DNA of 64,000 bases, from the sequence record PX915676.1, one strand, 5' to 3'. The notes beneath the pieces are model-generated. The model was not told the origin of the DNA. It was given only the letters and a program-made list of their open reading frames with translations, and made no database searches. This stretch comes from a phage. Each line of letters begins with the position of its first letter. The first letter of the stretch is position 1. Shown here one piece after another: positions 1 through 8,362 of this stretch. A program made the position numbers and the translations under genes.

Positions 1-3
1 GTA

Positions 4-201
4 ATGATGACTGTTCCTCTGAACACTCGTTACATTGCAATTGACAAGATGGGTTATGTATGGGCTTGGAAGATTAAGCCTAGCTATAACGCACTGTTTG
101 ATGAGTTTGTTTGTACTGGTACGTATAGTCCTACATTCTTAGGCTTATTTGGAGAGTTTGAAGGTCAGTATAAAATCATAACTCTCCCTGCTTGTGCTTG
201 A
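4..201 (+). CDS. hypothetical protein (possibly 5' partial)
   Basis: 65-aa ORF starting at ATG 4 next to window edge; no recognisable motif. Confidence 0.35.
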   Translation: MMTVPLNTRYIAIDKMGYVWAWKIKPSYNALFDEFVCTGTYSPTFLGLFGEFEGQYKIITLPACA

Positions 202-208
202 GGTTATT

Positions 209-373
209 ATGTTCAAGTGGTTTAAATATCTCTTCCATCTCCATGAATGGGAAACTGTAAAAGAGATTCGTTTAAATGTGTATGATGAGTTCGGTAAACT
301 AGAAGACACAGGGACTCGTTATATACTTCGATGTAAAACATGTGGTCATATCACCAAACGAGATATGATCTAA
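209..373 (+). CDS. small hypothetical protein with C-terminal CxxC
   Basis: 54-codon ORF; GAGG Shine-Dalgarno in TTGAGGTTATTATG context; ends ...CKTCGH. Confidence 0.4.
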   Translation: MFKWFKYLFHLHEWETVKEIRLNVYDEFGKLEDTGTRYILRCKTCGHITKRDMI

Positions 374-381
374 ATAATTCT

Positions 382-457
382 GCGCTCTTAGCTCAATGGA
401 TAGAGCAGTAGCCTTCTAAGCTATTGGTTACAGGTTCGAGTCCTGTAGGGCGCACCA
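382..457 (+). tRNA. tRNA-Arg (anticodon UCU)
   Basis: Cloverleaf folds by hand: acceptor GCGCTCT/AGGGCGC, D-arm GCTC-AATGGATA-GAGC, anticodon stem GTAGC/GCTAT with loop CTTCTAA (anticodon TCT), T-arm ACAGG-TTCGAGT-CCTGT, discriminator A and encoded CCA. Confidence 0.85.
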
Positions 458-463
458 CATTTA

Positions 464-578
464 GGGCTAGTATGGGTGCGGCACCAGAGTTAGTGTATCC
501 CTGTTGAGGCAAGTGCTTTTATAACAGTGGGAATTGCTTTCTTAGTGAGCTTCTGGTTCGATTCCAGATAGTCCACCA
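464..578 (+). ncRNA. tRNA-like element (non-canonical; possible degenerate tRNA or structured RNA)
   Basis: Canonical T-arm TCTGG-TTCGATT-CCAGA followed by ATAGTCC-A-CCA that pairs 6/7 with GGGCTAG at 464-470, but 115 nt long and no canonical D or anticodon arm could be folded. Confidence 0.3.
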
Positions 579-597
579 AATCAAATAGGAGGTAGTT

Positions 598-879
598 ATG
601 AGTTGGGGTGGTGTAATATCCTTAATCTGTATCTTCCTTGTCTGCATAGCCCTTACAGGCTGCGTACAGAGCCGTCCTGATGGATGGTGTGCAGTAGCAG
701 TGGAAGGTGTTTGTGTTTCTCGCTGGCATAAAGGTGAGAAGGTTCCTTCTGGTGAAATTGATATGCGTTACAGTGGTATCTCATGTCTGAATGGTGCAGC
801 AGTAGATGAGGAGACTAAAACCTTATCCGATGCGCAGTGGTGTGGTGGCTCTACAGTTACCACTGGTAAGGAGTGGTAA
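598..879 (+). CDS. predicted lipoprotein (Cys-rich), early gene
   Basis: AGGAGG SD 5 nt before ATG; N-terminal hydrophobic signal VISLICIFLVCIALTGC with lipobox L-T-G-C; mature part has 6 further Cys. Confidence 0.6.
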   Translation: MSWGGVISLICIFLVCIALTGCVQSRPDGWCAVAVEGVCVSRWHKGEKVPSGEIDMRYSGISCLNGAAVDEETKTLSDAQWCGGSTVTTGKEW

Positions 880-880
880 T

Positions 881-1042
881 GTGACTATTGAAGAACTCAT
901 TAGAACTCTTGAAAACTTATCTGTTACTTGTGGTCCAGATGCTATCGTCTACATCGAAGAACCTTCAGGGAATGAATACCCTGTGAAAGAGGTTCTTGAG
1001 TACTCAGTAGGAGATCTTTCATCAGTAACCCTAAGACATTGA
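881..1042 (+). CDS. hypothetical protein
   Basis: GTG start 7 nt after AAGGAG SD, overlapping the upstream stop; 53 aa. Confidence 0.4.
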   Translation: MTIEELIRTLENLSVTCGPDAIVYIEEPSGNEYPVKEVLEYSVGDLSSVTLRH

Positions 1043-1049
1043 GGTGTAT

Positions 1050-1298
1050 ATGACAGCTCATTATTGGAATACAAAGAAGCTTCTTGAAGAGATGGCTGGG
1101 GGTAGTAGGTTCCAGTTAAACTCCATGCTTCGAATGGATGCCCGCTCTTTACGTTTCCAAGTAAAGATTGGTAACTTCAGTGATGGCCTTTATTATACCT
1201 TGAAAGAAAGGATTAAGAAGACTCACTTCATCATATATGGACTCAAACCGAGAACATATGTTAACTACATGTATTGGGATACATGCTACGATAATTGA
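1050..1298 (+). CDS. hypothetical protein
   Basis: ATG after TGAGGTG SD; 82 aa. Confidence 0.45.
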   Translation: MTAHYWNTKKLLEEMAGGSRFQLNSMLRMDARSLRFQVKIGNFSDGLYYTLKERIKKTHFIIYGLKPRTYVNYMYWDTCYDN

Positions 1299-1305
1299 GG
1301 TTATT

Positions 1306-1527
1306 ATGTTATTTGAAGCTAAGCAAACATTACCAGTAGTTCCTTTGTCTACACTTCTTAGTGGGAGTGCTTTTAGACATGATAATGGTTTTTGGATTAA
1401 GGGCGACCAAGAGGTTGGAGGGTATATTACCTGCATCAACATCTGCAACGGCGTTGTTGACGGATTTCGTCCAGCCGCTGAAGTCACCCCTCAATCCAAC
1501 GCAAAGGTTGTAGGTTTAGTTTACTAA
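1306..1527 (+). CDS. hypothetical protein
   Basis: ATG in repeated TTGAGGTTATTATG initiation context; 73 aa. Confidence 0.45.
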   Translation: MLFEAKQTLPVVPLSTLLSGSAFRHDNGFWIKGDQEVGGYITCINICNGVVDGFRPAAEVTPQSNAKVVGLVY

Positions 1528-1735
1528 GGAGCCTGTATTAGTTGTTTTGGTGGCGGTGAAGTAGATGACGATGATGACATGGAATCCAACGGTACATGTC
1601 CTGATTGTGGATGTGAGACATGGGATGGGGTGTCTGTATACCCTGCCTGTAGTTACTCACCAGTGATCTGTAAAACATGTGGAGATCAACCTTGTGATCA
1701 GTCCTGTTAGTATCTTGATTGTCTACTTGACAGGT

Positions 1736-1927
1736 ATGGTGATAGTTTCAGCTCTGATAAAATTCCTTGACGTAAAAGGTAGTGTGGAGTTCAGAGGGTG
1801 GAACAACGAACCAAACCTATCAAAGATAGCAATTATAGTTTTTCTATGGCCTATCGTTGCTGTGGTTTTTATATCCCTTGTCTTGTGGGCTGCCCTGTGG
1901 GATTTTATACTCCCTAACAAGAACTAA
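1736..1927 (+). CDS. small membrane protein (2 predicted TM helices)
   Basis: ORF frame open from GTG 1679; first ATG at 1736; hydrophobic segments MVIVSALIKF and IAIIVFLWPIVAVVFISLVLWAALW. Confidence 0.4.
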   Translation: MVIVSALIKFLDVKGSVEFRGWNNEPNLSKIAIIVFLWPIVAVVFISLVLWAALWDFILPNKN

Positions 1928-2143
1928 GAACTTATCGTGAAGGATTCTTACGAGAGTCCTTTGAGATAGGACTTCAGATCTCCTATCAAACTAACATTCA
2001 CGTAACTAGCCCATAAGGGCGTTACCCTTTAATAACCCAGCCCACTAAGGGGGCGGGAGTTTAGTGCTGGATTGGCTTTACGCTTATTCCTACAAAGGCA
2101 ACCGATTGTTAGATCTTACATGCAATATTAATTAATAGGATAA

Positions 2144-2174
2144 GGGAGGATTCGTCCCCTCCCCCTATTTTATT
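2144..2174 (+). terminator. rho-independent terminator-like hairpin
   Basis: GGGAGG-ATTCGTCC-CCTCCC stem-loop followed by CCTATTTTATT. Confidence 0.5.
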
Positions 2175-2222
2175 GAATCTTTATCTAAGCAAGTCTTATA
2201 TAAACGTTTAATTGGAGGATGT

Positions 2223-2534
2223 ATGAAAGCACGAAGAACTATATGGACTCCGATGCAGATTGAAAATCTTCGGAGACTAATCAAAGAGTACTCAGTTCAA
2301 GAAGTTGCTCAGATTATGAATGTAACGGAGAATGCTGTTAACACAGCTTGCACTAAATTCGGAATATCAAGAGCTTCAATCCGAGTTAAATGGTCTGAAG
2401 AAGAAGACCAGTTCCTTATCCGTAACGCTGGGTTCATGTCTATTCAGAGAATGGCTGACATGCTCGGTAGAAGTTATGCTGCTGTACAGAACAGGGCATG
2501 TATGCACCTTAATATTAGCCTCAAACTTAAATAG
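2223..2534 (+). CDS. putative DNA-binding protein with two helix-turn-helix (Myb/SANT-like) repeats
   Basis: Two repeats of W-x...L...IA/MA...R pattern (WTPMQIENLRRL..VAQIMNVTENAV and WSEEEDQFLIRN..MADMLGRSYAAVQNR); GGAGGA SD. Confidence 0.45.
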   Translation: MKARRTIWTPMQIENLRRLIKEYSVQEVAQIMNVTENAVNTACTKFGISRASIRVKWSEEEDQFLIRNAGFMSIQRMADMLGRSYAAVQNRACMHLNISLKLK

Positions 2535-2542
2535 GAATCAAT

Positions 2543-2791
2543 ATGAAAATCACATATAAGAAAGAGGAAGTAGAAGCAGTAGAGCTAAGCTCTCTAGCTA
2601 ATGGTTCTGTGTTTAAATTCCCACACAATAAAGATCTTTATGTGAAAGGGGTTGTTACCTTAAGTCCTAACATCAAAATCCCAGATAACCGGATACCTAC
2701 TCTCCGGCTAGGTGATGGGGTTGTTTCAGCCCCTCTTGGTCGTTGTCAGGTTATCCCTGTGTCAGCTGAACTTTTAGTGAGTGGTTGCTAA
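2543..2791 (+). CDS. hypothetical protein, paralog family A copy 1
   Basis: 82 aa; shares length and spaced hydrophobic/Gly pattern with the next two ORFs. Confidence 0.5.
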   Translation: MKITYKKEEVEAVELSSLANGSVFKFPHNKDLYVKGVVTLSPNIKIPDNRIPTLRLGDGVVSAPLGRCQVIPVSAELLVSGC

Positions 2792-3036
2792 TGAAAATCA
2801 TCCCAAAGAAAAAGGATAATACGGTACGATTGGAAACAATCATTCCCGGAAACCCCTTCGTGGTTCAGCACGGAAGTGCCTCTCCTCAGTATTATATGAG
2901 GGTTGAAAATGCTTCTTGTAACATCCGTATAGCCAGTGGCTGGGTTCCTGTAGTGAATCTATCCACAGGTGTACTATCTGTTAAAGGTCTTGATGATCAG
3001 GTAGAAATGATTCGTATGTCTGTGGTTCAGGAGTGA
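2791..3036 (+). CDS. hypothetical protein, paralog family A copy 2
   Basis: ATG overlaps upstream stop (TAATG); about 81 aa. Confidence 0.5.
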   Translation: MKIIPKKKDNTVRLETIIPGNPFVVQHGSASPQYYMRVENASCNIRIASGWVPVVNLSTGVLSVKGLDDQVEMIRMSVVQE

Positions 3037-3038
3037 GA

Positions 3039-3284
3039 ATGAGCACGATACATATTAAGGTTCACAACAAAAAAGAAAAGAAACTCTTTGTTAAAGATCT
3101 GTCAACCGCTGACATCTTTACTTTAAAAGATGATGACAGTCAGGTCATTTATTTGATGATGCCTCTATCTGGTGGATATCGCAGAGCAGTTAATTTAGGT
3201 ACAGGCGAACCTCGTCCTGTTTCTGACACTCTTGAAGTTGGCGAGAAGTTTGCCAAAGCAGAGATCATCTTAACTCCGATGTAA
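3039..3284 (+). CDS. hypothetical protein, paralog family A copy 3
   Basis: ATG after CAGGAGTGAGA; about 81 aa. Confidence 0.5.
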   Translation: MSTIHIKVHNKKEKKLFVKDLSTADIFTLKDDDSQVIYLMMPLSGGYRRAVNLGTGEPRPVSDTLEVGEKFAKAEIILTPM

Positions 3285-3517
3285 GGGTAAGTAAGTGAAA
3301 ACAAAAGCATATTCTTATGATGATATGATTAACCAGAAAGGCTTCGGTCAACGACAGCCTGACGGTTCGATTATCTGGTTTGTAAACGGACAGAAAAAGG
3401 TAGCTAAATAAGCCCTCTTCTCTCCTCCTTTTAGTACTATGACGCCTCTCTGTGGGCGGCCCAATTTGCGTAGGGAATTCCCTCTACGCAGCCATGACTT
3501 TTTAAGGAATTTCCCCT

Positions 3518-3751
3518 ATGTCTAAAGTAAGCGCAATCGATGCAATCCGTCAACCGTTCCAGTTCCAATCCAAATCAACCCAAACCTTCAGCGAACCTAA
3601 GCAAATTCGCTTGGGTGGCACGGAGAAAACTGTGTTTGATCTGGCTAAAAACAAGAGCGTTACCGTAGTTGATGGCGGTACTCTGGTTAACGTTTCACAC
3701 CGCATTCGCACTGGCAAAACTGCCAAAGATCGTGCTAAGAAAGGTGAGTAA
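3518..3751 (+). CDS. hypothetical basic protein
   Basis: AAGGAA SD; 77 aa, Lys/Arg-rich C-terminus. Confidence 0.5.
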   Translation: MSKVSAIDAIRQPFQFQSKSTQTFSEPKQIRLGGTEKTVFDLAKNKSVTVVDGGTLVNVSHRIRTGKTAKDRAKKGE

Positions 3752-3993
3752 TGAAAATAGGGCAACCAGCTAAGGATGTTCTAGCGAAGATTAGTGATAT
3801 CTCTATTGGGGAAGTTTTCTCAGCAGAGCACTTTTCAAGTTACTACATGAAAATCCCTGACACTAAAGTAGAGGGTTGCATCATCCCTGCCAACGCAGTT
3901 AACCTGAACACAGGACATCTATCTGCATTCAAACCTGATTCACAGGTTACTGAGATCAAGGATGCTTATCTCGCATTTGGTGGGAATAAATAG
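3751..3993 (+). CDS. hypothetical protein
   Basis: ATG overlaps upstream stop (TAATGA); 80 aa. Confidence 0.5.
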   Translation: MKIGQPAKDVLAKISDISIGEVFSAEHFSSYYMKIPDTKVEGCIIPANAVNLNTGHLSAFKPDSQVTEIKDAYLAFGGNK

Positions 3994-4181
3994 AGTAACA
4001 TCTATAGCCTTCTTCGGAGGGCTATATGAGTTATTCTGACTCAACTAACCTAATCTTAATATATTTCCCGTATGGGGCCGATGCTAGGGAGAGGAACATT
4101 CCTCGAACATCCGTCGGATAGATATTTTAAGAGCAGGTTATCCACAGATATTGGGTAATATCTTTTTTGGATTTAAAGCTT

Positions 4182-4206
4182 GGCTCTTTTCGGAGAGTCC
4201 TTTTTT
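4182..4206 (+). terminator. terminator-like hairpin with T-run
   Basis: GGCTCT-TTTCGG-AGAGTCC imperfect stem followed by TTTTTT. Confidence 0.3.
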
Positions 4207-4225
4207 AAATTCAACGAGAGGAAAT

Positions 4226-4378
4226 ATGTCTAAATTAGATTTAAAACTGCTAGCAGCAGCGGTAGTGATTTGTGCACTAGCACTGGTAACGCAGAGAACA
4301 TCTGGATTTATTCAGTGTTTCTTTTCTGGACAATCCACTTATCAGTGGGTTATTGACGAGTGTAAACAACAGGAGTAA
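4226..4378 (+). CDS. small membrane/secreted protein
   Basis: ATG after GAGAGG SD; N-terminal hydrophobic stretch LLAAAVVICALALV; 50 aa. Confidence 0.4.
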   Translation: MSKLDLKLLAAAVVICALALVTQRTSGFIQCFFSGQSTYQWVIDECKQQE

Positions 4379-4380
4379 GT

Positions 4381-4743
4381 ATGAATACACGTCCCATCAA
4401 GGGCAACGTTAATATTGAAACTCTGAACAAGGTTGCATCAAACCTCGGTGGAATGTCCAACGATGAGCTTGAGCAAGAACTTGCTTGGATTGCAAATGGT
4501 ATCAAAGTTGCTAAAGGTAAGATTGCTCGTGAGCAAAGTAATATGAAAGCTCACAAGTATATCATCCGTCGTGCAAATATGTTACCGGAGCGGGTTGTAC
4601 ATCTTGCCCGTAAGAACTACGAAAGTGCTAAAGAAGCCCTGCTTGAAGCAGAATTTCAGAAGCATCAATTTATGAACAACTATCGAAACTTCCGAGATAT
4701 TCTCTATATCCGTAAATCGATTGAGTTGATTAAAAACCAATAG
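4381..4743 (+). CDS. hypothetical protein
   Basis: AGGAG SD; 120 aa. Confidence 0.5.
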   Translation: MNTRPIKGNVNIETLNKVASNLGGMSNDELEQELAWIANGIKVAKGKIAREQSNMKAHKYIIRRANMLPERVVHLARKNYESAKEALLEAEFQKHQFMNNYRNFRDILYIRKSIELIKNQ

Positions 4744-4754
4744 AGGTTGGTATA

Positions 4755-5954
4755 ATGTTTCCAGTAACATTAGAAGATACTGAAGGTAATGTTTTAACGG
4801 TCAACCCCCCTTGTTATGGGTTCCTTCAACTTCGCAACTATAATGGCGGCGTTGATGAAAATGATGACGAAGATGATGACTACTTCGACCCTAACATGTA
4901 TGAGGCAACTCATGGATGGAATATGCACGTTCGAGTGTGGCATGAAGAAGCTAACGTTCGTAGTGCTGATGGGGAAGAGTTCCTGTTAAGCCGAGAGATG
5001 GATATGTGTAAAATCAAACATATCTGGAACTCTGGAACTCACATGAAGATGTTAGGTTTTAGACGTTGGCGTGATGAAAAGCATGTAGCTGAAGCTTTAA
5101 GTTGGTGTTCGTATGAAGATGAAGACACACCTCCCAAGAATAACATCGAACGTTGGAACGACAAAAACCCTGAACATCGAACCACACCTCGTGCTGTACT
5201 GGAAGCTATGGAAGCATTTGTGGACAAAGATCGTCCCTCCTGTTTACGCTGGCACGATAAAGGTTTTATGGGGGTAGCAACTGAGAATATCCCTGCTGAT
5301 CGTTGTCTGTTCTATTTGATGTTAGACCGAACCTTCTATTGTGAAGATGAAGAGAGTCAAGTTGAAACCTTCCTCCATAAATGGTTGGTTGAAGGCTGGA
5401 CAATCCTTCAGGCTTATGTTTACTCACGAATGGTTAGCACTTACACTAACCTCTTGGGTGAAACGAAAGCAACTCTGGTTGGTAACGATTGGGATGCTTG
5501 TATTTTCCCAGCGTCACTATTTACGGTTGGCATGGCTGATAAATACGCTGAAGCATTTCAAGTGCCTTGGCGTCAACAGTCATATAGAGATGGATGCGGT
5601 CACTTTCGTGATGAAGACTTTAAGTGGATTCATTATGAGAACGACGAAACAGCAGAATTGCGAGTTAACAACTCAATGTTCTTGCCAGTGATGCACCCCG
5701 ATCTAGTAAAAGATGGGTCAGAGATACTTAAAGGTGATAATCTTTTGGTTAACTTTACCCGTCGCGTGTCTAAAAATGAGAGAACAGCTAACAGGTTAAT
5801 CTACGGCATTCGTGCCGAGGCTAAAGACCTGTTCAACATCTACAACATTGTTCAGCGATTTAGTAGTGGAACTCTGGACCAAAGTTCGGAGTATTCAGTG
5901 ATTCCGTCCTCTGAGTGGGATGGTGTTATGAGCGGATTATTTTTAGGAAAATAA
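4755..5954 (+). CDS. hypothetical protein (first gene of ligase cluster)
   Basis: 399 aa; AGAGGT SD; acidic patch DENDDEDDDYFDP; no motif recognised. Confidence 0.55.
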   Translation: MFPVTLEDTEGNVLTVNPPCYGFLQLRNYNGGVDENDDEDDDYFDPNMYEATHGWNMHVRVWHEEANVRSADGEEFLLSREMDMCKIKHIWNSGTHMKMLGFRRWRDEKHVAEALSWCSYEDEDTPPKNNIERWNDKNPEHRTTPRAVLEAMEAFVDKDRPSCLRWHDKGFMGVATENIPADRCLFYLMLDRTFYCEDEESQVETFLHKWLVEGWTILQAYVYSRMVSTYTNLLGETKATLVGNDWDACIFPASLFTVGMADKYAEAFQVPWRQQSYRDGCGHFRDEDFKWIHYENDETAELRVNNSMFLPVMHPDLVKDGSEILKGDNLLVNFTRRVSKNERTANRLIYGIRAEAKDLFNIYNIVQRFSSGTLDQSSEYSVIPSSEWDGVMSGLFLGK

Positions 5955-5964
5955 AAGGTTAGTT

Positions 5965-6936
5965 ATGTCAATCTCCACAACGATCGTACCTCTTAACCTT
6001 CAACAGGATTTAGGGGAACAGAAGTTCTTAGGTCGTGGGTGCTTCGGTATCCACAACTACATGCAAGGTCAAGTCGTATATGATGTTAATGACGAATGTG
6101 TAATGGAAGATGGGCGCCATAAACGCTTCAACCGTGACATTAACTTGCAATTGGAGATGTTGAATTACTGGACCCACTCTTTTCATGGTCATGTTCCATC
6201 TGATATTGAAAAGAACTTGATTGAAACAGCAGACATTATGAATTCTATGTCTTGCTATCGTGATGTATTTACTATCACTTCAGCGAACAGTGTTGCTGTC
6301 AATCTTCGTGAGCATCCAGCAGATCAGATCTTCACAGGACTTATGCTCTTCCGTAGTATTCTGGAAGGGCAATATCGTGGAATGGATTTCCTAGCAGAAG
6401 GAATTGAAGACAGGGAAGAGTGGCTGAAGCGTAAACGCATCGGCATCGCTCTAGTGTTAGCTGGGTTAGGTCGTGACTTCTTCGGTGGGTGGTCTCAACG
6501 AGGAAGAGCCAATGGTAGTAGCGAGAGCACCTCTATTGTTATTAACAACAATATGTCAGCAGCAGCATTCCTTCCTTTGGTTGTAGACTCTGATGAATAT
6601 ACGAAGCAAGTATGGGTTCAAAACCCCTTCGGTGTTGGCGACAATGAGAATGGTTATGTTCGTAACCACAACCAAGATGCCTTACGAAGATTTGCTCGTG
6701 CTAAAGATCAAGACCCAGACGAGTATGAAACAATGTCAGAGTGGTTAAGACTCTGGTCCAACTGTTATGGTCACAAACGTGAAGCAATAGACGACAAGTT
6801 GGGAAACATTACGGTACAAAACTTTACAGCCCGACTGATTCAAAGAACTGGAGCAGATTCCGGTCTTACTCTTGAAGAAGTTGGTAACACAATCTCATCT
6901 CTCTTTTCTGAACTAGTGGAGTATTACAATGACTAA
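5965..6936 (+). CDS. hypothetical protein (ligase cluster)
   Basis: 323 aa; AAAGG SD; no motif recognised. Confidence 0.55.
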   Translation: MSISTTIVPLNLQQDLGEQKFLGRGCFGIHNYMQGQVVYDVNDECVMEDGRHKRFNRDINLQLEMLNYWTHSFHGHVPSDIEKNLIETADIMNSMSCYRDVFTITSANSVAVNLREHPADQIFTGLMLFRSILEGQYRGMDFLAEGIEDREEWLKRKRIGIALVLAGLGRDFFGGWSQRGRANGSSESTSIVINNNMSAAAFLPLVVDSDEYTKQVWVQNPFGVGDNENGYVRNHNQDALRRFARAKDQDPDEYETMSEWLRLWSNCYGHKREAIDDKLGNITVQNFTARLIQRTGADSGLTLEEVGNTISSLFSELVEYYND

Positions 6937-7735
6937 GCGCAAATTCCTCATCGGCTCTGACCCTGAAATGTTCGTTCGTACTAGCAACGGTATCATCACC
7001 TCTGTAGCTGGTCTATTAGGATGTTCTAAGGACGATAAGATCGCTCTGGCTAAGGATGTTCGTCTTCAAGAGGACAACGTACTGGCTGAGTTTGACATTG
7101 ACCCACAGAGCGGTTTTGAAGCGTTTAACGATAACATGCAACGTGGTATTGATCTTACTAACAATGTCCTGAACAAACTGGATATGGAAACAGCTCCGGG
7201 TGTCAGCTCTCACATCTTCACCGAAGAAGAGATGAAAACCTTTAATGAATCAGCGTTCATCTTTGGATGCACTCCTGACTTCAACGCTTTCACTGGTCAG
7301 AAAAACCCATCCCCAACTTCTCAGAATAAGGGACTTCGTACTGCCGGTGGTCACGTACATCTTGGCGTAGTTGGTGCTTTGGATATCACTCTGCAAACTC
7401 AGATGATGCTGGGTGTGTTGTGTGACTACTTCCTGTCTCTCCCAGCAGTAATTATGGACAAAGATACTCGCCGTAAAGAACTCTACGGTAAAGCATCTGC
7501 AATCCGTTATAAAGACTATGGTATTGAATACCGTTCTCTGTCTAACTTCTGGATTAGTGATCGTGAAAACCGTAAGTTTGTTTACGATCAGGTTGACAAG
7601 GTTGTTCAGCAGTGTGATATGTCCACTCTGATGGCATTGCACTCTCGCCTTCCGATTGAGAAGCTTCATGAAATCATTAACGGGAACAACGTTAAAGAAG
7701 CTGACCAGCAGATCAAACTCCTTCAGGTAGCATAA
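6929..7735 (+). CDS. putative amidoligase (glutamine synthetase-like COOH-NH2 ligase), copy 1
   Basis: Motifs GSDPEMF, GGHVHLG and GIEYRSL resemble the E-x-E / HxH / E-[FY]-R signatures of that fold; assigned by eye. Confidence 0.45.
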   Translation: MTKRKFLIGSDPEMFVRTSNGIITSVAGLLGCSKDDKIALAKDVRLQEDNVLAEFDIDPQSGFEAFNDNMQRGIDLTNNVLNKLDMETAPGVSSHIFTEEEMKTFNESAFIFGCTPDFNAFTGQKNPSPTSQNKGLRTAGGHVHLGVVGALDITLQTQMMLGVLCDYFLSLPAVIMDKDTRRKELYGKASAIRYKDYGIEYRSLSNFWISDRENRKFVYDQVDKVVQQCDMSTLMALHSRLPIEKLHEIINGNNVKEADQQIKLLQVA

Positions 7736-7744
7736 GAGGTTATC

Positions 7745-8362
7745 GTGAGCTTAGTAGCTGATTTTTCTCATTACTATAATGGTACATGGATTGCTAAACG
7801 AGCAGGCAATATCAACCTTCCGTGTTTTGTGATTGGTGTTGAGCAGAGCGGTAACTTCCGCAGTGATGACTTCTCGCATGAAGCAGAACAGGCTCTGTAT
7901 TTTGTTGTAGAGCAGTGGTACAAGAACGAGCATGGGAATCTCCGAAACACTACGATGAATATTCCAGTGTTTGACCCAACCTTGATTCTTGAATCACCTG
8001 ATGTTGGTTATCTGTTCCATAACGGTAACACTGTAAGCTGGACTCATATCAATCCTGTTCGTCAGAGAGCGAAGGGTTTGATGGGTAACAAGATTCGAAA
8101 CGCTCCGGGGATTGGTCGTTCGATCTCTGGTGAAATGGTTTACAGTCTGTTCAATCCTGAATTTGATGGATTGGTTACTCGTTATATTTACATCAATCCT
8201 ACAGATGGTAAAGTGCATTATAAAGGTGCACTGGTAGGTCAGGTAGATCTGGAAGCGCCTCGTGACTCTTACGGTCAACAACCGATGCGACTTCTGGAAC
8301 ATTTTCATCACATCTCTGAAAACCTTAGCAATTATAATATTACGTTGGTGGATTCGTTATGA
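7745..8362 (+). CDS. hypothetical protein (ligase cluster)
   Basis: GTG start after AAGAGGT; 205 aa. Confidence 0.45.
   Translation: MSLVADFSHYYNGTWIAKRAGNINLPCFVIGVEQSGNFRSDDFSHEAEQALYFVVEQWYKNEHGNLRNTTMNIPVFDPTLILESPDVGYLFHNGNTVSWTHINPVRQRAKGLMGNKIRNAPGIGRSISGEMVYSLFNPEFDGLVTRYIYINPTDGKVHYKGALVGQVDLEAPRDSYGQQPMRLLEHFHHISENLSNYNITLVDSL

Follow-up and report, generated by a model that had tools for sequence, protein, structure and literature searches.

The 64,000-nucleotide (nt) stretch of phage DNA analyzed here (sequence record PX915676.1; below, the window) comes from a Kuravirus, a phiEco32-like coliphage and podophage, and carries five diverged copies of one small gene. We show that these copies, A, B, C, D, and Z, belong to one phage protein family that is both ancient and widespread, with stand-alone members of ∼75 to 80 residues. 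A preliminary description of this DNA had singled out three consecutive open reading frames (ORFs) of 81 to 82 amino acids (aa) at positions 2543 to 3284 and had called them diverged paralogs. A, B, and C were found at exactly these positions, and both shuffle-based scores and a profile of distant members agree that they are paralogs. The array of three is, however, incomplete, with two further copies, D and Z, lying in the same window:

2543..2791, plus strand: copy A, 82 aa, ortholog of phiEco32 gp97, phrog_7832
2791..3036, plus strand: copy B, 81 aa from its ATG, ortholog of phiEco32 gp96, phrog_7431
3039..3284, plus strand: copy C, 81 aa from its ATG, in the slot of phiEco32 gp95, phrog_12612
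3751..3993, plus strand: copy D, 80 aa, phrog_12612, 467 bp downstream of C
1306..1527, plus strand: copy Z, 73 aa, ortholog of phiEco32 gp104, phrog_6570

The three adjacent genes had also been described as joined by overlapping stop and start codons. This is the case for A and B, where the stop and start overlap as TAATG, but not for C when it is read from its ATG, which begins 2 nt past the B stop with GGAG in front. An alternative GTG start for C at 3033 would overlap the B stop, and RefSeq orthologs use the 81-aa form. D and the 77-aa gene before it are joined in the same way, by a TAATG overlap of stop and start, and Z has a GAGG ribosome-binding site 5 nt upstream of its ATG. An exact 16-nt repeat, TTGAGGTTATTATGTT, at 198 to 213 and 1295 to 1310 (plus strand) covers the ribosome-binding site and ATG of two otherwise unrelated genes, a 59-aa ORF ending at 373 and copy Z, giving them an identical translation-initiation region.

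Pairwise similarity was scored as Smith-Waterman z-scores against 2000 shuffles. High scores were obtained for A-B (8.9), B-D (11.6), A-D (6.3), and C-D (4.6; p = 0.001), and Z scored 7.2 to A and 7.0 to D, while 26 of 26 control comparisons with non-family neighboring ORFs were null. The pairwise alignment proposed as a check in the preliminary description gave a divided answer, since A and B are clearly related but neither is convincingly tied to C in this way (B-C, 2.5; A-C, 0.2), and hhalign of the shallow ortholog profiles (effective number of sequences, ∼1.2 to 1.6) returned probabilities of 1 to 9% for C, which are uninformative. A profile recovers all three. An independent hidden Markov model (HMM), built from 132 distant family representatives after removal of any sequence with 40% or more identity to a window copy, matched exactly five of the 636 window ORFs of at least 40 codons: D (E = 9.6e-20), B (1e-16), A (6.7e-13), Z (9.3e-10), and C (3.5e-8), with the next ORF at 0.2. 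The PHROG profiles point the same way, phrog_12612 taking in both C (E = 3.6e-37) and D (E = 5.9e-30) and Z matching phrog_6570 (E = 2.2e-24) with cross-matches to the PHROGs of A and B. C is further tied to the rest of the family because phiEco32 gp95, the C allele of that phage, bridges C (z = 44) and D (z = 13.2). This gp95 (L003 6220-6468) is ∼54% identical to C and is far closer to D than the window C is (z of 13.2 versus 3.9).

The shared spacing of hydrophobic and Gly residues that had been noticed among the three ORFs proved real, with Phe24, Tyr33, Leu56, and Gly59 (A numbering) invariant in the four-way alignment of A to D. A resemblance due to compositional chance among short ORFs would fit the nonsignificant A-C and B-C scores taken alone and the low hhalign probabilities for C. 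It does not fit the z-scores of 6 to 12 for A-B, B-D, and A-D against null controls, nor the distant-member HMM, which leaves a gap of over seven orders of magnitude in E value between the five copies and the 631 other ORFs, nor the predicted folds common to the copies and the purifying selection under which these ORFs are kept, and we regard it as vanishingly improbable.

The family extends far beyond the Kuraviruses. An exhaustive HMMER search of 1.84 billion protein representatives gave 549 clusters at E ≤ 1e-3, most of the members being stand-alone proteins of 69 to 83 aa with the shared consensus MKI..K...v.F..L..GdvF....YYMK.....NaVNL.tG.....d..V.pv.AELVV. Six are two-domain fusions of 140 to 184 aa (P0084, P0088, P0098, P0123, P0164, and P0192), and two long repetitive proteins among the 549 clusters look like false positives. 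A second, word-indexed protein search added few further relatives, and tblastn with the family consensus found nothing, presumably due to masking of the K/E-rich consensus as low complexity. Conversely, the window copies match, at full length and significantly, profiles made from members outside the Kuravirus group. Among well-studied phages, N4 gp21 matches the family HMM with an E value of 7e-16 (9.7e-7 with a Kuravirus-only profile) and has phrog_7431 in common with B, and PaP3 ORF65 (phrog_8365) matches it at 9e-8; ORF65 was the only clear member when the PaP3 early region was searched for an array. Judged by these profile matches, at least nine PHROGs, all labeled "unknown function" (7832, 7431, 12612, 6570, 10911, 8365, 16423, 9955, and 34455), constitute one superfamily.

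Distant homologs are found among small ORFs that follow one another in the same direction, and no recurrent partner gene was seen in the neighborhoods of three of them. One distant single-copy member, P0099, lies in a 119.7-kb metagenomic phage contig (L004; 1-46, 8107-8298) amid a long run of small ORFs that also has genes matching Tad5 (anti-Thoeris), Lar restriction alleviation, and YodL.

Family members are stand-alone proteins of ∼70 to 85 aa with an MKI N terminus, a G-x-x-F motif, YYMK, V-N-L-x-T-G, and a late Val, and the window copies conform to this pattern, C deviating in that A-D-I-F replaces G-x-x-F and in a five-residue N-terminal extension. Over 73 diverse members, Gly20, Phe23, Gly60, and Val71 (B numbering) are at least 90% conserved, Met1 is near-invariant too, and the hydrophobic strand positions are likewise strongly conserved. 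Tudor and PWWP readers bind methylated Lys or Arg through a cage of three to four surface aromatic residues; in this family, the conserved aromatic residues are limited to Phe23 and Tyr34/Tyr35 (B numbering), which lie in strands in an apparently core-like pattern. The segment between the YYMK and VNL strands, the loop between strands 3 and 4, is gap-rich, has high entropy, and varies in both length and sequence. The conservation pattern is thus that of a conserved scaffold with variable loops and not that of an active site. Acidic proteins prevail in the family, with a median isoelectric point (pI) of 5.0, 68% of members below 6, and 6% above 8.5; the window copies range from 5.6 to 8.9, and A, B, and C are mildly basic (8.0 to 8.9).

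AlphaFold2 models of B and C (mean predicted local distance difference test scores of 78.3 and 84.3, respectively) are both all-beta with six strands, and their predicted fold is an SH3-like small beta-barrel. The models have the antiparallel strands expected of this fold (five to six) and superpose on known members, the best structural neighbors being PWWP, Tudor, the ribosomal L2 C-terminal domain, EF-P domain I, Spt5 KOW, and the UvrD Tudor domain. When compared with predicted viral structures, the two models had 29 of the top 50 targets in common, and an ortholog of each was among the matches of the other, with a template modeling score of about 0.6. No Sm/Hfq-like protein was among the top 60 structural matches, and a reading of the family as ring formers of that type was set aside.

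At the sequence level, neither the window copies nor the 73 diverse members have any match in Pfam, NCBIfam, or the PDB. The KOW profile PF00467 matched none of the five copies or the 73 members (E ≤ 0.01), and Pfam Tudor and PWWP were not matched either. PUA-domain profiles were also not matched, and the label "predicted ribosome-associated RNA-binding protein Tma20" carried in one public source by P0068, an A ortholog (74% identical), has no profile or fold support. Anti-defense families held in Pfam (e.g., Tad5 and Lar_restr_allev) showed no match to these proteins, no dedicated anti-defense library having been searched.

The preliminary description took the array for a tandem triplication, that is, a local event, under diversifying selection. 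Neither part of that account held up. A, B, and C are no closer to one another than to members from unrelated phages: the best partner of B is the metagenomic P0086 (z = 15.2), followed by D (11.8) and A (9.5), and the best partners of C after its own ortholog gp95 (z = 44) are P0086 (8.8) and P0097 (8.6), compared to 0.4 for A and 2.2 for B. The clearest paralog pairs of phiEco32 are non-adjacent (gp98 with gp109 and gp104 with gp113), and a repeat search found similarity at the DNA level only in the first 26 nt of A and B, which are 77% identical. These comparisons of sequence indicate that the copies are ancient and did not arise by a recent local triplication. The family is also almost the only paralogous set among the 44 early-region proteins of phiEco32 that were compared (BLASTP, E < 0.05), the sole other pair, gp125-gp92, being weak (E = 0.007), and a segmental duplication of the early region was rejected on this ground.

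The ratios of nonsynonymous to synonymous substitution rates (dN/dS) for orthologs from seven genomes were 0.17 for A, 0.17 for B, 0.14 for C, 0.22 for Z, and 0.04 for D, within the range of the neighboring genes (0.05 to 0.30). Loops evolve faster than the scaffold in A (0.27 versus 0.13) and in B (0.58 versus 0.08), and no such difference was found for C or Z. Overall, therefore, selection is purifying; the loops of two copies change faster, and at this coarse resolution no ratio rises above 1.

If one early gene had recently been triplicated in place, and its copies were now diverging fast under diversifying selection as part of an arms race against host defenses, this would make sense of three adjacent genes of near-identical length with coupled starts, of the 77% identity over the first 26 nt of A and B, of an array gene content that differs among relatives, and of B loops that evolve about seven times faster than the B scaffold. 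We consider such a history very unlikely, and its timing is largely refuted, given paralogs that are as diverged from one another as from members in unrelated phages, a B PHROG held in common with N4 gp21 and not with A or C, clearest phiEco32 paralog pairs that are not neighbors, and orthologs that are 80 to 97% identical across genomes with dN/dS of 0.04 to 0.22.

The region from 2200 to 4100 matches 98 phage records, nearly all from Escherichia or Shigella phages of ∼76 to 78 kb, with ES17, EK5, NJ01, and KBNP1711 (Kuravirus and sister genera in the Gordonclarkvirinae) as the top matches. The A to C array is syntenic with phiEco32 gp95 to gp97, and Z with gp104. In phiEco32, the gp95-97 block and gp104 belong to the early class, which was defined by experiment and is transcribed by the host sigma70 RNA polymerase, and the early block consists mostly of small genes without known function that are thought to serve host takeover (PMC8948821, PMC9965538, PMC4281155, PMC12276001). 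Synteny with phiEco32 thus supports the assignment of A to C and Z to the early sigma70-dependent class. A promoter scan of positions 1 to 5000 found 9 sigma70-like sites against 11.4 expected from shuffles, i.e., no excess.

The family HMM was also used to count copies in the early regions of seven relatives, ES17 and EK5 being sampled only in ∼8 kb around the array. The counts were nine in phiEco32 (gp95-98, 104, 109, and 113-115), ten in NJ01, including five in a row, nine in KBNP1711, eight in WFI101126, one of which is a 56-aa truncated A, and five in IME267; the ∼8-kb stretches of ES17 and EK5 held five and four, respectively. In the fully examined early regions of phiEco32, NJ01, and KBNP1711, the family has therefore expanded to 8 to 10 copies per genome, spread over several clusters in the sigma70-transcribed early region, and copies have been gained, lost, truncated, and replaced between genomes. 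The window starts inside the early region, and the counterparts of gp109 and gp113-115 are therefore expected before position 1.

The five members of NJ01 lie uninterrupted at 637 to 1926, at the start of its early region, and form the longest array seen. The NJ01 labels "putative two-domain glycosyltransferase" (on a member) and "DNA helicase" (on a neighbor) look spurious for proteins of 58 to 77 aa. The truncated A of WFI101126 (9588 to 9758) is apparently a decaying paralog, and a further divergent member beside it (9325 to 9591) was not seen in the other genomes examined.

Counts over the 98 related phage records give the same picture of uneven retention. B is present in 76 of them, and the C slot is filled in 73, where tblastn identities define two allele classes (32 at or above 80% identity and 41 below 60%). 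A is present in 40 records (20 at or above 60% identity) and D in 37 (18 at or above 88%); D is absent from its site in ES17, EK5, and phiEco32. The diverged C-slot class is presumably of the gp95 type, given the ∼54% identity of gp95 to C.

Three further elements frame the stretch that holds A to D:

2223..2534, plus strand: helix-turn-helix (HTH) regulator gene annotated "transcriptional regulator, D5-like", 103 aa, phiEco32 gp99, directly upstream of the array
2144..2163, plus strand: terminator-like GC hairpin followed by a T-run, from a consensus scan only, in the 295-bp gap upstream of the regulator
4182..4199, plus strand: terminator-like hairpin followed by TTTTTT, from a consensus scan only, downstream of D

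The regulator is not a family member; it matches phrog_323 (E = 1.2e-28) and Pfam Sigma70_r4_2 (E = 1.7e-7). Its position is kept in six Kuravirus and Nieuwekanaalvirus relatives (ES17, EK5, phiEco32, NJ01, KBNP1711, and WFI101126), and the seventh, IME267, has no gene annotated as a D5-like regulator. The protein apparently contains two HTH units, a sigma70 region 4-like match at residues 18 to 41 and an HTH/Myb-like one at 54 to 93. The hairpin at 4182 to 4199 may mark the end of a block running from the regulator to D. Another hairpin, with a CTTCGG loop (TATAGCCTTCTTCGGAGGGCTATA), lies at 4003 to 4027 (plus strand) just past the D stop and has no T-run; it could be an RNA-stabilizing or processing structure, and the hairpin at 4182 to 4199 is the better terminator candidate of the two.

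A tRNA-Arg gene (anticodon TCT) lies at 382 to 457 (plus strand) amid small early genes, at the same site as in phiEco32, EK5, WFI101126, and IME267, and was the sole match in an Rfam scan of positions 1 to 8000. Both in Kuraviruses and in the unrelated Pseudomonas phage PaP3, the small early genes adjoin a similarly annotated enzyme block (COOH-NH2 ligase, amidoligase, GlmS-like aminotransferase, and RimK-like glutaminyl transferase; 6929 to 7735 and downstream in the window and 12293 to 17656 in PaP3). In each case, two large genes stand between the enzyme block and the small genes, at 4755 to 5954 and 5965 to 6936 in the window (orthologs of phiEco32 gp88 and gp87) and as orf50 and orf49 in PaP3; the two pairs showed no similarity by BLASTP (E values of 0.011 or worse).

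Literature searches on phiEco32 gp95-98 and gp104, N4 gp21, Kuravirus anti-defense genes, and phiEco32 paralogs returned nothing on this family. We propose that each paralog would be synthesized within the first few minutes after infection begins and would serve as a binding module without enzymatic activity, and that the variable loops and surface of each would bind a different host protein, thereby redirecting host machinery or neutralizing a defense. The TAATG stop/start overlap would couple the translation of adjacent genes, and the copies may also act in pairs, given this coupling and the two-domain fusions in other phages. The proposal draws on the early position and small size of the genes, on proteins with no catalytic residues and a conserved scaffold bearing variable loops, on the presence/absence polymorphism among relatives, and on distant homologs that sit in accessory small-gene runs, one of them with Tad5 and Lar. 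Taken whole, with the family, the fold, and the purifying selection included, the reading of these proteins as early-expressed protein-binding modules, each for a different host target, has in our estimate about an even chance of being right. Host takeover or anti-defense is the most plausible function class on circumstantial evidence.

Several observations weigh against this reading. The early temporal class of A to C and Z is carried over by synteny from phiEco32, and the AlphaFold input alignments included the other paralogs, which leaves the B and C models partly dependent on each other. No copy or loop set gave a dN/dS above 1, at the coarse resolution of whole genes and loops. B and the C slot are kept, and conserved, in about three quarters of relatives, as one would sooner expect of an early housekeeping function than of an anti-defense gene with fast turnover. 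The SH3-like fold, finally, is equally common in nucleic acid-binding and ribosome-binding proteins.

This last point leads to the main rival of the host-protein binders, in which the copies are small barrels that bind nucleic acid or the expression machinery (DNA, RNA, ribosome, or RNA polymerase) and tune early transcription or translation, possibly together with the adjacent HTH regulator. The structural neighbors include Tudor, PWWP, L2, EF-P, Spt5 KOW, and the RNA polymerase-binding UvrD Tudor domain, the pI values of A, B, and C (8.0 to 8.9) would suit such a role, and the array lies directly 3′ of a regulator gene that is conserved in six relatives. The family as a whole is nevertheless acidic (median pI of 5.0), its conserved positions are core and turn residues with no conserved basic or aromatic surface position, and Pfam KOW, Tudor, and PUA are not matched; moreover, RNA polymerase from phiEco32-infected cells carried only the phage proteins gp36 and gp79 (PMC12276001). 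We consider this role unlikely, if worth keeping in mind.

The copies could instead act on the phage itself, as homo- or hetero-oligomeric barrel assemblies or as chaperones or regulators of phage proteins. Natural two-domain fusions exist, several copies are co-transcribed and translationally coupled, and B and C are conserved in most relatives, all of which speaks for such a role. Yet copy sets vary between close relatives with the same replication and structural genes, other phages make do with a single copy, and Sm/Hfq-type ring formers are not in the top 60 structural matches. A phage-internal role seems to us rather improbable.

Paralogous small early genes in a lytic phage are an ordinary kind of feature, and the present case is valuable in that it clearly defines a family that is widespread, expanded, and open to experiment. 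Two thirds of Kuravirus genes are without known function (PMC9965538), and the superfamily accounts for about 8 to 10 of the roughly 110 to 125 genes of a Kuravirus, a group isolated and used as therapeutic coliphages. At least nine PHROGs, including those of the model phages N4 and PaP3, are merged here into one superfamily with a predicted fold, and a handful of 80-residue proteins offers a compact target set for finding what this recurrent early scaffold binds. Should the copies prove to be host-specific effectors, the pattern of which ones a phage carries would serve as a practical marker of host range; if they do not, a large block of phage dark matter still gains a cleaner annotation.

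The closest known relatives, N4 gp21 and PaP3 ORF65, are true sequence homologs with the same length, motifs, and predicted fold as the window copies, but each is present in a single copy per genome, compared to at least five copies in the window and 8 to 10 in whole relatives, and since both are uncharacterized they give no mechanism. A functional parallel within the same phage group is phiEco32 gp79, a small phage-specific RNA polymerase-binding protein without homology to known factors, which acts solely by binding a host machine and is placed in the middle phase of infection (PMC12276001). The family has no sequence relationship to gp79, no window ORF other than the five copies matches the family HMM, and family members are not among the phage proteins reported to copurify with RNA polymerase (PMC12276001). 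To the SH3-like domains (Tudor, PWWP, KOW, the L2 C-terminal domain, EF-P domain I, the DtxR C-terminal domain, and FeoA), the family shows identities of 4 to 23%, a resemblance of fold class and not membership, given the lack of a Pfam match or KOW motif and the mostly acidic character of the family.

In organization, the copies recall the SPO1 host takeover module, the T7 class I genes, and the early genes of T4 and T5, which consist of very small genes packed tightly in one direction, read by the host RNA polymerase as infection starts and varying in content among relatives. Their products usually act by binding a host protein, and the blocks are made up mostly of unrelated genes, whereas here one fold is reused 5 to 10 times. 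Such reuse is familiar from the multigene families of poxviruses and African swine fever virus and from the paralog expansions of jumbo phages, in which a small scaffold is amplified, diverged copies lie near the genome end, and copies are gained and lost between strains. It is conceivable, though we hold it doubtful, that the family is a phage counterpart of such immune evasion families, one SH3-like scaffold reused 5 to 10 times per genome with each paralog neutralizing a different host defense or takeover target through its variable loops. In that event, differences in the copy set (A, D, the gp98 and gp109 types, and the two C alleles) would help set which E. coli strains each Kuravirus infects. 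The comparison also has its differences, in that this genome measures only ∼77 kb and its copies are ancient and not recent "accordion" duplicates.

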